From the NCBI RefSeq assembly GCF_055900595.2, contig NZ_CM148325.1: a stretch of 64,000 nucleotides of DNA; one strand, written 5' to 3'. This document shows positions 6,310 through 16,808 of this stretch, piece by piece. The position numbers and the translations under genes are program-made. The notes under the pieces are model-generated. The model saw nothing but the letters and a program-made list of their open reading frames with translations. It was not told the origin of the DNA and searched no databases. Positions within the stretch are counted from its first letter, which is position 1, and each line of letters starts with the position of its first letter.

Positions 6310-8139
6310 CTACTCTTCGTCGTCGCCATCGACATGCGCACGGATAAGTGCCATAAACGGTTTGCCAAAGCGCTCCAGTTTGCGCATCCCAACGCCGTTA
6401 ACGCTGAGCATTTCGCTGGCGGTGATTGGCATCTGTTCCGCCATCTCAATCAGGGTCGCGTCGTTAAACACCACATACGGCGGGACATTACTTTCATCAG
6501 CAATGGATTTACGCAGTTTGCGTAATTTGGCGAACAGTTTGCGATCGTAATTGCCACCGAACGATTTCTGCATCGCTTTCGGTTTGAGCGCCACAATACG
6601 CGGCACGGCAAGTTGTAAAGAGGATTCGCCGCGCAACACCGGGCGCGCGGCCTCTGTCAGTTGTAGGGCAGAATGCTGCGCAATATTTTGCGTCACCAGG
6701 CCGAGGTGAATCAGCTGGCGGATCACGCTGACCCAATGTTCATGGCTTTTATCGCGACCCATGCCGTAGACTTTCAGTTTGTCATGACCATAGTCGCGGA
6801 TTCGCTGGTTATTGGCGCCGCGAATCACTTCCACTACATAGCCCATACCAAAACGCTGATTCACACGACCAATGGTGGAAAGCGCAATCTGCGCATCGGT
6901 TGAACCATCGTACTGTTTCGGCGGATCGAGGCAGATATCGCAGTTCCCGCACGGCTCCTGCCGCCCTTCGCCAAAATAGTTCAGCAGCACCAGACGACGG
7001 CAAGTTTGCGCTTCGGCAAACGCGCCCATCGCATTGAGTTTATGACGTTCGATATCCTGCAACTGCCCCTGCGGCTTCTCTTCCAGGCAACGGCGCAGCC
7101 ACGCCATATCCGCTGGATCGTAAAACAGCATCGCTTCCGCGGGCAGGCCATCACGCCCGGCGCGTCCGGTTTCCTGATAATAGGATTCGATATTGCGCGG
7201 AATATCAAAGTGGACCACGAAGCGGACGTTTGGTTTATTGATGCCCATGCCGAACGCCACCGTCGCCACCACAATTTGCAGGTCATCGCGCTGGAATTTT
7301 TCCTGCACGTCCGCACGGACATCGTTTTCAAGCCCGGCGTGATAAGCCGCTGCGCTGATACCCTTGCTTTGCAGACGCGCTGCGGTGTCTTCTACTTTCG
7401 CACGACTATTACAGTAAATAATCCCCGACTTACCGCGTTGTTCCTGCACGTAGCGCATCAGCTGATCGAGAGGTTTGAACTTCTCCATCAGCATGTAGCG
7501 AATATTCGGGCGATCAAAACTGCTGATTTGAATCAGCGGATCGTTCAGCCCCAGCAGGCGCACGATATCCTGCCGCGTGGTGTCGTCGGCGGTGGCGGTT
7601 AGCGCCATAAACGGCAGAGTAGGAAAACGCTGACGCAGCTGACCGAGCGCGGCGTATTCCGGGCGGAAATCGTGCCCCCATTGGGAGATACAGTGCGCTT
7701 CATCAACGGCTAATAACACTGGATTCCAGTGCGCCAGATGCTCAAGGAAGTTATCCAGCATCAGGCGTTCCGGCGCGATATACAGCAGGCGGATTTGCCC
7801 GGTGCGGCAGCCTGTCATTACTTCAAGCTGCTGCTCGCGGGTTTGCGTCGAGTTAAGGCACGCCGCCGCCACGCCGTTGGCCTGTAGCTGATCCACCTGA
7901 TCTTTCATCAACGAAATCAGTGGTGAAACAACCACGGTAAGACCGTTTAGCAGTAAGGCAGGAATTTGATAGCAAAGGGATTTTCCGCCACCAGTGGGCA
8001 TGACGACCAGGCAATCGCGACCGGAAAGTACGGTGTCGATAATCTCTTCCTGGCCGGGGCGAAACTGTTGGTAGCCAAAGGTTTCTTGTAAAACCTGTTT
8101 AGCCCCGGACTCCAGATTCAACACTTCCGCCTGCGCCAC
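6310..8139 (-). CDS. recQ: ATP-dependent DNA helicase RecQ
   Basis: 609-aa ORF with the helicase motifs PTGGGKS and DEAH (in [19 protein letters not shown]), plus the Zn-binding CGNCDIC and a C-terminal HRDC region. Starts at a GTG (plus 'cac' at 8137-8139). Confidence 0.95.
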
Positions 8140-13703: not shown

Positions 13704-13738
13704 AACAACCGTTTTGTGTCACTGAATATGGTGCAGAT

Positions 13739-13841
13739 GCCGGATGCGGCGTAAACGCCTTACCCGGCCTACATGACATTGCAATTTATTGAATCTACAT
13801 GATTTTGTAGGCCGGATAAGGTGCGCAGCACCGCATCCGGC
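13739..13841. repeat. BIME: two REP elements in inverted orientation
   Basis: GCCGGATGCGGCGTAAACGCCTTACCCGGCCTAC (13739-13773) and the inverted copy GTAGGCCGGATAAGGTGCGCAGCACCGCATCCGGC (13808-13841), between the convergent yigE and uvrD. Confidence 0.8.
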
Positions 13842-13845
13842 AACG

Positions 13846-16008
13846 TTATACCGTCTCCAGCCGGGCGTAAGCCGCCACCAGCCATTTAATACCCTGGCCC
13901 TGAAATGCCACCTGCAAACGACTATGTTCGCCGCTGCCTTCCATATTGACGATAGTCCCTTCACCAAACTTGGCGTGTCGTACGCGCTGGCCGAGTTTGT
14001 AACCGCTGTCGTTCTCAACCATCGGCGTACCCATACGCTGATGGCTGACCGGGCGGCTTACCGTAGCGCGTAAACGCACCTCTTCCACACACTCTTCCGG
14101 CAACTCGCCAATAAAACGCGACGGGCGATGGTAAACCTCTTTGCCATACAGACGCCGGGTTTCCGCGTAGGTCAGCGTCAGTTTCTGCATCGCGCGGGTT
14201 ACGCCAACGTAGGCCAGACGGCGTTCTTCTTCCAGACGCCCGCCTTCATCCAGCGACATCTGGCTTGGGAACATGCCCTCTTCCATACCGACAATAAACA
14301 CCTGCGGGAATTCCAGACCTTTCGCCGAGTGTAGCGTCATCAGCTGTACCGCATCCTGCCAGGTATCCGCCTGCCCTTCACCTGCTTCCAGTGCCGCATG
14401 GGAGAGGAACGCCTGCAGCGGCATTAAATCTTCGTCTTCTTCGTTGTAGCTGAACTGGCGCGTTGCCGTCACCAGTTCCTCTAAGTTTTCGATACGCGTC
14501 TGGCCTTTTTCGCCCTTCTCTTGCTCGTACATGGTGCGCAGGCCGGAGTCTTTAATTACCCGATCAGTCTGTACATGCAGCGGCATATCGGCAGTTTCTT
14601 GCGCTAAGGCGTCGATCAGTTCCATAAACCGTTGCAAAGCGCTGGCAGCACGTCCGGCGAGGGCTTTTTCCTGCAACAGTTCACGACATGCCTGCCAGAG
14701 TGTTAACTGGCGATCGCGCGATGTCTGACGTACCACGTCCAGCGTCCGGTCACCAATACCCCGCGTTGGCGTATTCACCACGCGCTCAAAGGCCGCGTCG
14801 TCGTTACGGTTGGCAATCAGGCGCAGATACGAGAGCGCATCTTTGATTTCCTGGCGTTCGAAGAAGCGCATCCCGCCATAAATACGGTACGGCATACTGG
14901 CTTGTAATAACGCCTCTTCCAGTACACGCGACTGGGCATTGCTACGATAGAGAATGGCGCACTCGGCGAGCGCCCCGCCGTTGTCCTGCCAGGTCTTGAT
15001 GCGGTTAACAACAAAACGCGCTTCGTCGAGTTCGTTAAAAGCGCAATAGAGGGAAATCGGCTCACCGTCCGCGCCATCGGTCCACAACTTTTTACCCAAA
15101 CGCCCGTTGTTGTTTTCAATCAAGGCGTTCGCCGCGCTCAGGATATTGCTAGTGGAGCGGTAGTTTTGCTCCAGACGGATAGTTTCGGCACCGGGGAAAT
15201 CATTGAGGAAACGCTGAATATTCTCCACCTGCGCCCCGCGCCAGCCGTAGATTGACTGGTCGTCATCGCCAACAATCATCACTTTGCCAGTATCGCCCGC
15301 CAGCAGGCGGATCCACGCGTACTGAATGTTGTTGGTATCCTGGAATTCGTCTACCAGGATATTGGTAAAACGTTCGCGGTAGTGTTGCAGGATATGCGGC
15401 TTGTTAAGCCACAGTTCGTGGGCGCGTAGCAGTAGTTCAGCGAAGTCTACCAGGCCCGCGCGGTCGCACGCTTCCTGATACGCCTGGTACACCTTCTGCC
15501 AGGTCTGCTCCACCGGATTACCGTAGCTTTGAATATGATGCGGACGCAGCCCTTCATCTTTCTGGCTGTTGATGTACCACATTGCCTGGCGCGGCGGCCA
15601 CTGCTTCTCGTCGAGGTTCATGGCTTTGATCAGACGCTTAAGCAGGCGCAGCTGGTCTTCGCTGTCGAGGATCTGGAAATCCTGCGGCAGGTTGGCGTCC
15701 ATATGGTGCGCACGCAGCAGACGGTGTGCCAGCCCGTGGAAAGTGCCGACCCATATACCGCCCTGGCTGGTACCCATCAGTTGCCCGATACGATGGCGCA
15801 TTTCCGCCGCCGCTTTGTTGGTAAATGTCACCGCCATAATCGAGTACGGCGAGCAGTTTTCCACGCTCATCAGCCAGGCGATACGATGCACCAGTACGCG
15901 CGTCTTACCACTGCCCGCGCCCGCCAGCACCAGAAGGTTGCTGCGTGGCGCGGCCACCGCTTCGCGCTGTTTGTCATTAAGGCTGTCGAGCAGGTAAGAA
16001 ACGTCCAT
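13846..16008 (-). CDS. uvrD: DNA helicase II UvrD
   Basis: Track ORF (782 aa) trimmed to the ATG at 16006-16008, giving [40 protein letters not shown]... (720 aa), a UvrD/Rep superfamily-1 helicase. Confidence 0.95.
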   Translation of the reverse strand: MDVSYLLDSLNDKQREAVAAPRSNLLVLAGAGSGKTRVLVHRIAWLMSVENCSPYSIMAVTFTNKAAAEMRHRIGQLMGTSQGGIWVGTFHGLAHRLLRAHHMDANLPQDFQILDSEDQLRLLKRLIKAMNLDEKQWPPRQAMWYINSQKDEGLRPHHIQSYGNPVEQTWQKVYQAYQEACDRAGLVDFAELLLRAHELWLNKPHILQHYRERFTNILVDEFQDTNNIQYAWIRLLAGDTGKVMIVGDDDQSIYGWRGAQVENIQRFLNDFPGAETIRLEQNYRSTSNILSAANALIENNNGRLGKKLWTDGADGEPISLYCAFNELDEARFVVNRIKTWQDNGGALAECAILYRSNAQSRVLEEALLQASMPYRIYGGMRFFERQEIKDALSYLRLIANRNDDAAFERVVNTPTRGIGDRTLDVVRQTSRDRQLTLWQACRELLQEKALAGRAASALQRFMELIDALAQETADMPLHVQTDRVIKDSGLRTMYEQEKGEKGQTRIENLEELVTATRQFSYNEEDEDLMPLQAFLSHAALEAGEGQADTWQDAVQLMTLHSAKGLEFPQVFIVGMEEGMFPSQMSLDEGGRLEEERRLAYVGVTRAMQKLTLTYAETRRLYGKEVYHRPSRFIGELPEECVEEVRLRATVSRPVSHQRMGTPMVENDSGYKLGQRVRHAKFGEGTIVNMEGSGEHSRLQVAFQGQGIKWLVAAYARLETV

Positions 16009-16066
16009 TGGCACCGCCGCGTAAAAATAGGTTGGGCGGAGAAGCGCAACGCCCTCCGCCAAAAAG

Positions 16067-16082
16067 CTGGGTATATATACAG
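16067..16082 (-). promoter_or_regulatory. LexA (SOS) box in the uvrD promoter
   Basis: Minus-strand CTGTATATATACCCAG fits the CTG-N10-CAG LexA consensus and lies about 60 bp upstream of the uvrD start. uvrD is a known SOS gene. Confidence 0.8.
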
Positions 16083-16091
16083 ATTTGCTGA

Positions 16092-16808
16092 TTATATCAG
16101 CGAGGTCAGAGATGCCAACCGGGAAATTTCCAGATGCGGGAGTAAACGGCTGTCCCAGGTTTGCATCAGATCGCCATTTTCCGGTCTGATCCAACAGGCC
16201 TGCATTCCGCTGCGAATTGCCCCACCCACGTCAGTGGTGAGATCGTCCCCGACATGTAAGATCTCACCGATCGGCACGTTGAGTTTTTCCGCCGCCAGGA
16301 AGTACATATCGCTGAACGGTTTCGAGCGCCCGTGCGGACCAGCGCGCAGCACAAACTCAAAATAATGCCCCAAACCAAACAGCTCCGGCTGGGCGTTACC
16401 GTTGGTGATCGCCACCAGCGGCCATTTCTTCGCCAGCTGTTTTAAGGTGTCGTGCGTTTGCTGCGGAACGTCGATCCGGCTACGCCATTTGGCAAAGTTG
16501 ATCATTGCCGCGTGTGCGCCTGCACTGGCCTCTTCCGCGCTCAGCCCGGCATCAAGCATCGCTTGTTCTATTGAGCGAAAACGCCAGCGCGTCACATCAT
16601 GATAAATCTCGGGTTCCGCTTCCCGTACCGCCTGACGCAGACGTTGCAGATCTTCATTCTGGAAGCTGCGCAGCGCCGGATGGTAATTTTGCACAAAGGT
16701 AAGCGCCTCCTGCTCAGTGCGCAAAATCACCGGACGGTTATCGTAAAGGGTATCATCCAGGTCAAAGGTGAGCGCCGAGATGCGCCCCAAAGGCCGGTAA
16801 AAACGCAT
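16092..16808 (-). CDS. yigB: HAD-family phosphatase YigB (5-amino-6-(5-phospho-D-ribitylamino)uracil phosphatase)
   Basis: 238-aa ORF containing [12 protein letters not shown] (HAD motif I), the last gene of the dapF-yigA-xerC-yigB cluster. Confidence 0.9.

Follow-up and report, generated by a model that had tools for sequence, protein, structure and literature searches.

A LexA-controlled uvrD promoter within the end of yigB, followed by a leader hairpin that is probably a weak attenuator, in Escherichia coli

How much of the transcription of uvrD comes from its own SOS promoter, and how much from read-through of the genes upstream, bears on the high and partly LexA-independent basal level of this gene. 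The yigB-uvrD junction described here belongs to a stretch of 64,000 nt (hereafter the window) from contig NZ_CM148325.1 of RefSeq assembly GCF_055900595.2. Positions 16009-16091 of the window (minus strand) are the whole 83-nt intergenic spacer between yigB and uvrD (Table 1), and 1201 nt around it match several E. coli chromosomes in RefSeq with 100% identity. The gene order in the identical RefSeq genome is lptM-dapF-yigA-xerC-yigB, then uvrD, all on one strand. The stop and start codons of lptM, dapF, yigA, xerC and yigB overlap or abut, with yigB as the last gene of the string.

Based on our data, this is very probably the uvrD regulatory region in a form identical to that of K-12, made up of a strong promoter in the end of yigB, a LexA operator and a leader hairpin that is probably a weak attenuator. 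The LexA box, the promoter and the leader attenuation of uvrD are already known, from publications that go back to 1983, and a sequence identical to that of K-12 holds little new biology. What is added here is a quantification, across 80 species, of the selection on a promoter whose -10 overlaps a stop codon, the description of a plastic uvrD leader that appears to capture repeats, and the correction of an earlier note on this DNA with regard to the strength of the operator, the place of the promoter and a hairpin that it had missed.

Table 1. Features of the yigB-uvrD junction and of the uvrD 3' flank, in window coordinates
Feature	Position	Strand	Basis and remarks
yigB CDS, 238 aa	16808..16092	minus	stop TAA 16094-16092; ORF list and RefSeq annotation of a 100% identical genome
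-35 hexamer TTGGCA (yigB Leu-Ala codons TTG GCA)	16118-16113	minus	promoter scan
Extended -10, TG-A-TATAAT	16099..16091	minus	TG 16099-16098, TATAAT 16096-16091; promoter scan
Putative uvrD transcription start, A residue 5-7 nt past the -10	16084..16086	minus	promoter geometry only
LexA operator, 20-mer ATCTGTATATATACCCAGCT; core CTG-N10-CAG = CTGTATATATACCCAG	16084..16065; core 16082..16067	minus	pattern and weight matrix
Leader hairpin GGCGGAGGGCGUUGCGCUUCUCCGCC, GC-rich	16060..16035	minus	-17.9 kcal/mol; folding
U5 run, 7 nt past the hairpin, spacer CAACCUA	16027..16023	minus	sequence
Shine-Dalgarno-like GGCGGUG within the CGGCGGTGCCA motif, immediately 5' of the uvrD ATG	16012..16018	minus	sequence
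uvrD CDS, DNA helicase II, 720 aa plus stop	13846..16008	minus	ATG 16008-16006; ORF list and RefSeq annotation
Two inverted REP elements right after the uvrD stop	13737-13772; 13807-13844	plus; minus	REP tail pattern; REP HMM E 4e-11 and 5e-10

A single sigma-70 promoter was seen by the promoter scan on the minus strand of the yigB-uvrD region, with 11 of 12 hexamer positions matched, a 16-nt spacer and an extended -10, and it was the best promoter-like site across the 7 kb from uvrD to lptM. The earlier note had placed this promoter in the 3' flank of the yigB transcription unit. It is indeed embedded at the end of dapF-yigA-xerC-yigB, but both hexamers are within yigB, whose last nine codons carry the promoter, and the TATAAT overlaps the stop itself, the last Ile codon, the TAA and the T that follows together forming the hexamer. 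As judged from promoter geometry, uvrD transcription would start at one of the A residues 16086-16084.

For comparison, species-representative genomes were scanned once with the N-terminal 200 aa of UvrD as query, which gave 80 Enterobacterales loci ranging from Escherichia to Pantoea, Pectobacterium, Serratia, Hafnia and Budvicia. Among the 72 unique sequences from these 80 species, 96-100% invariance was seen at the third codon positions that fall in the -35, the TG and the -10, and equally at the other bases of the -35; at the fifteen other third positions of the last 19 yigB codons the major-allele frequency runs from 0.35 to 1.0, with a median of about 0.69. Moreover, the yigB stop is always TAA, and the TG and the -10 hexamer do not vary at all. 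This invariance of synonymous sites and of the TAA across species is direct evidence that selection acts on the promoter within the coding sequence, and codon and stop-codon choice in yigB is thus constrained by the uvrD promoter.

The operator follows closely. The earlier note had located it at 16067-16082 of the minus strand, about 10 bp past the yigB stop, and these coordinates proved exact, with a gap of 9 nt to the stop and 58 nt left before the uvrD ATG. The core, CTG-N10-CAG, forms an imperfect palindrome of 16 bp whose centre is AT-rich. The 20-mer begins 6 nt past the TATAAT and thus abuts the promoter; relative to the proposed start it would span roughly +1 to +20.

The bare pattern CTGT-N9-CAG is not informative, with nine matches in the window against 5.8 +/- 2.5 expected. 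Scoring was done with a symmetrised weight matrix from 17 published LexA boxes, uvrD being left out of the 18 motifs in Table 4 of PMC3009722. With 16.4 bits (16.2-16.4, uvrD left out), the operator 20-mer is the top site of the window, the runner-up having 12.3. Its score was reached by 3.8% of 500 first-order Markov sequences of 64 kb and lies about 2 sd above the expected maximum; in a leave-one-out ranking the box comes 14th among the 18 validated ones, which range from 6.4 to 28.2 bits. By sequence alone, then, the site looks like a real but middling operator, not an overwhelming one by weight matrix. Another CTG-N10-CAG match, TGCTGTTTTACGATCCAGCG (12.0 bits; 7111-7130, minus strand; core 7113-7128), lies within a 609-aa minus-strand ORF that we take to be recQ from its size and map position. 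It is probably a chance match and not an operator; the other CTG-N10-CAG matches in the window likewise score no more than 12 bits.

It is the context that decides. The promoter adjoins the site, the LexA motif of K-12 uvrD, whose transcript is UV-induced, is printed as AAATCTGTATATATACCCAGCTTTT and is identical to that of the window (PMC3009722), and a box is conserved in 80 of 80 loci; for these reasons the core is accepted as the genuine LexA operator of uvrD, which we regard as confirmed. Its middling rank agrees with a reported heterology index (HI) of 8.5, a 2.1-fold induction by AZT with a 1.7-fold lexA (lexA3) dependence (PMC11228462), and the classification of uvrD as an "early" SOS promoter (PMC5999292). 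The weight-matrix score proposed as a check by the earlier note thus falls within the range of the validated boxes but is moderate: the operator is genuine, as had been claimed, and the word "good" overstated it.

A yigB-like ORF ends 43-207 nt before uvrD in every one of the 80 loci, and the best match to the LexA matrix always lies 0-13 nt past the yigB stop (6.5-21.5 bits; a perfect CTG...CAG in 73). Between the box and the ATG, on the other hand, there are anything from 12 to 176 nt. The operator is therefore tied in its position to the promoter rather than to uvrD. The CGGCGGTGCCA motif beside the ATG is also kept in most of the 80 loci, and the GGCGGUG in it probably serves as the uvrD ribosome-binding site.

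Within E. coli the junction hardly varies. From the -35 to uvrD codon 3, 126 nt are identical to K-12 MG1655. The spacer shows 0 differences in 83 nt, while yigB differs by 4.3% and uvrD by 4.9%, mostly at third positions (about 12% there). Of 5425 complete E. coli genomes, 5359 (98.8%) carry exactly these 83 nt, and the spacer of E. albertii has five differences, one beside the ATG and the other four within the hairpin. The block that is free of differences from MG1655 begins 48 nt ahead of the yigB stop and extends to +135 of uvrD (window about 16140 to 15874), and thus reaches beyond the known regulatory elements. Over the surrounding 1.2 kb, only 16 of the 5425 genomes are at least 99% identical to the strain and the rest are 95-99% identical; the window thus comes from a relatively divergent E. 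coli lineage.

Between the operator and the ATG lies the GC-rich hairpin of Table 1. The earlier note, in stating that there was no obvious intrinsic terminator, had missed both this hairpin and the U5 run; its conclusion that read-through is plausible nevertheless stands, as the terminator scan found no canonical minus-strand terminator at the junction. The scan did not call the hairpin because the U run is too far from the stem, starting 7 nt past it where the criterion is 0-2 nt. Locally the hairpin is unusually stable (z = -3.4), as none of 200 dinucleotide shuffles of its 45-nt context reached its stability. The leader as a whole, about 77 nt from the proposed start, has a minimum free energy ordinary for its composition (z = -0.32), and only the local hairpin stands out. 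In ten homologous hairpins from Escherichia, Citrobacter, Salmonella and some others, 93.6% of the cells are paired; one pair has changed in a compensatory way (G-C to U-A) and three changes lead to wobble pairs, and this retained pairing lends the structure modest support. An Rfam scan of 15800-16300 on both strands (E <= 1) returned no family.

The arms of the hairpin show a further feature. The 5' arm GGCGGAG nearly repeats the heptamer GGCGGUG of the Shine-Dalgarno region, and the 3' arm CUCCGCC could instead pair with the ribosome-binding region (16035-16041 versus 16012-16018). When the 5' arm is masked, the leader adopts another fold of -14.3 kcal/mol in which CCGCC from the 3' arm pairs; nothing that would trigger such a switch is evident.

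Judged by its geometry, the hairpin is probably the uvrD attenuator hairpin, presumably the attenuator of a study of 1983, and would give a transcript of about 60 nt. The title of that study states that uvrD is controlled by attenuation (Easton and Kushner 1983, NAR 11:8625, as cited in PMC7835731). The Term-seq data of Adams et al. (2021), from three growth conditions, have no entry for uvrD or yigB and none at 39979xx; they show no 3' end inside uvrD or up to 200 nt upstream of it, though a low-abundance RNA of about 60 nt might escape them. Such an absence speaks against a strong terminator in vivo but does not prove that none exists. The earlier note had held that a mapped terminator between yigB and uvrD would speak against its reading, and these data contain none. 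Taken together, the E. coli leader hairpin is at most a weak, partial terminator.

Outside the clade of Escherichia, Citrobacter and Salmonella type, the leader sequence is unrelated. Among 81 leaders, 67 have a hairpin of -10 kcal/mol or better and six have none. On average the leaders are more structured than their shuffles (mean z = -1.56), an excess driven by long palindromic inserts. A terminator-like layout of hairpin plus U run was found in 19 of 74 real leaders (26%) versus 81 of 444 shuffled ones (18%), which is no clear enrichment. A leader terminator as a conserved feature of the family is therefore not supported, and leader attenuation does not appear to be a conserved trait of it.

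With no canonical terminator and no mapped 3' end at the junction, transcripts of the upstream operon must cross the promoter, the operator and the hairpin. In the excerpts considered of the plus-strand Term-seq list of MG1655, the entries of the cya region (cyaA) are followed directly by 4000258/9, the uvrD REP terminator, and the uvrD 3' end of K-12 was mapped at this very position, within the REP pair (Adams et al. 2021). The SMRT-Cappable-seq supplements list no uvrD or yigB entry. A Rho-dependent termination region has been reported inside xerC (MG1655 3996822, plus strand, score 1.94, p 1.6e-6; Adams et al. 2021); it corresponds to about 17169 of the window (minus strand), upstream of yigB and uvrD, and may limit the read-through that reaches them. 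In Salmonella, a uvrD reporter revealed a subpopulation of ON cells that requires neither lexA nor recA (PMC8072944), which is compatible with a LexA-independent input without proving read-through. Since the hairpin is non-canonical and no Term-seq 3' end maps there, read-through from dapF-yigA-xerC-yigB into uvrD is plausible, and nothing in these data contradicts it.

In the reading that we prefer, transcription would start about 7 nt past the -10, and a LexA dimer on roughly +1 to +20 would block initiation or promoter escape until RecA-stimulated cleavage of LexA lifted the block. Binding and induction are here taken from the literature on the identical sequence. Because the operator is moderately near the consensus and the promoter is strong, a high basal level of uvrD with early, few-fold induction would be expected, as the literature describes and in agreement with the weight-matrix rank. 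The hairpin with its distant U5 would probably act as a weak, partial terminator for transcripts from the uvrD promoter and from upstream alike, a step for which the title of 1983 and the invariance among E. coli genomes speak, and against which the Term-seq data and the non-canonical spacing count. LexA-independent basal transcription would come from read-through of the upstream operon.

The leader also carries signs of repeated elements. In a MAFFT alignment with six REP candidates of the window, the E. coli hairpin resembles, by eye, a short REP variant. The REP-like hairpin reads GGCGGATGGCG...CTTATCCGCCCTAC in Citrobacter and Salmonella, and for these homologues the likeness to REP in the alignment, including the ...CTTATCCGGCCTAC tail, looks convincing. 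A REP HMM made from five window REPs gave no match for the E. coli hairpin (E > 100) and weak ones for its relatives (E 0.1-1.3). Salmonella-type leaders add a second, inverted REP-like copy. In Phytobacter, Cedecea, Kluyvera and a Citrobacter sp. (four leaders), an ERIC-like insert of about 125 nt is found some 20-150 nt past the LexA box and contains ...CACCCCAGTCAC...GCTCCTGGGGAT...; these two sequences presumably match the primer regions used in ERIC PCR.

Other explanations of the junction have to be set against the one preferred here. If the CTG-N10-CAG were a chance AT-rich palindrome of a promoter region, with no LexA function, one would understand why the bare pattern is about as frequent as chance predicts, why random sequences at times reach its score and why induction is only about 2-fold. 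This idea is effectively refuted by the identity with the published K-12 box (PMC3009722), by the lexA dependence of expression (PMC11228462) and by the presence of a LexA-type box at the same position in all 80 species while the flanking leader turns over. Another proposal makes the hairpin and its U run an efficient terminator, which would end the dapF-yigA-xerC-yigB transcripts and insulate uvrD, leaving its expression essentially to its own LexA-controlled promoter. A stable GC hairpin with U5 does stand between yigB and the uvrD ATG, the title of 1983 speaks of attenuation, and the 83 nt, hairpin included, are invariant in nearly all E. coli genomes. Nevertheless, we consider it improbable: the U run is 7 nt off the stem and the canonical scan is silent, no 3' end was mapped in the uvrD 5' UTR under the three growth conditions, six relatives lack any hairpin, and an efficient terminator at this place would block the transcripts of uvrD itself as well.

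The repeats just described lend themselves to yet another view, namely that the hairpin is a decayed REP-type palindrome in a permissive leader, with little or no regulatory role or at most one in RNA stability, so that control would consist of promoter and LexA only. The alignment with the window REPs points that way, as do the second inverted copy of Salmonella-type leaders, the ERIC-like insert at the same place in four genera, the variation in leader length and the lack of enrichment of terminator-like leaders over shuffles. The REP HMM, however, does not recognise the E. coli hairpin and scores its relatives weakly; pairing has been kept through the compensatory and wobble changes; and a hairpin without polymorphism in 5359 of 5425 genomes, alongside synonymous sites that diverge by about 12%, argues for constraint. 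We regard this view as clearly less likely than promoter, operator and weak attenuator acting together.

A broader and rather unlikely proposal, which we offer as speculation, would join some of these elements. The yigB-uvrD junction might combine a fixed module, a "promoter in stop codon", with a plastic leader that captures repeats. The -10 would be kept by selection at synonymous sites and on stop-codon choice across Enterobacterales, and repeated capture of palindromes would have given the leader its REP-like hairpin in both Escherichia and Citrobacter, its pair of REP-like copies in Salmonella, and its ERIC-like insert in Kluyvera, Phytobacter, Cedecea and a Citrobacter sp. The "attenuator" of E. 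coli would then be a domesticated REP-like element that throttles both the transcripts of the uvrD promoter and the read-through of the dapF operon, and bound LexA would act as a roadblock to that read-through.

The closest known system is the uvrD control region of E. coli K-12, which is the same locus: the 126 nt identical to MG1655 include the box AAATCTGTATATATACCCAGCTTTT, so that the regulatory region has no differences and only the flanking coding DNA differs, by 4-5%. In Salmonella enterica (PMC8072944; Pang and Walker 1983), uvrD has the same promoter in the end of yigB and the same box position relative to the yigB stop, the box being TTCTGTATAAATTCCCAGT(C/T) with an HI of 11.48, and the gene is SOS-inducible, 13.9-fold with nalidixic acid (PMC8072944). 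Its box lies 105 nt from the ATG versus 56 nt in E. coli, because the Salmonella leader carries the extra inverted REP-like element; our computed distance of 105 nt equals the 105 bp printed in PMC8072944.

Like REP/BIME elements, the leader hairpin is an imperfect, GC-rich palindrome that lies between genes and is transcribed, and in close relatives it resembles the REP tail ...CTTATCCGCCCTAC. REP/BIME elements act as partial transcription attenuators or 3'-end stabilisers. The E. coli hairpin differs from them in finding no match to the REP HMM and in lying in a 5' leader instead of a 3' UTR.

Among the SOS genes, uvrA/ssb, uvrB, ruvAB, dinG and ftsK, which have moderate, early operators, likewise carry a single CTG-N10-CAG at or near the promoter, with a mid-to-high HI, few-fold induction and substantial basal expression. 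Unlike them, uvrD has its promoter within the coding end of the preceding gene, with the -10 over its stop, and transcription from upstream is thereby forced through the operator.
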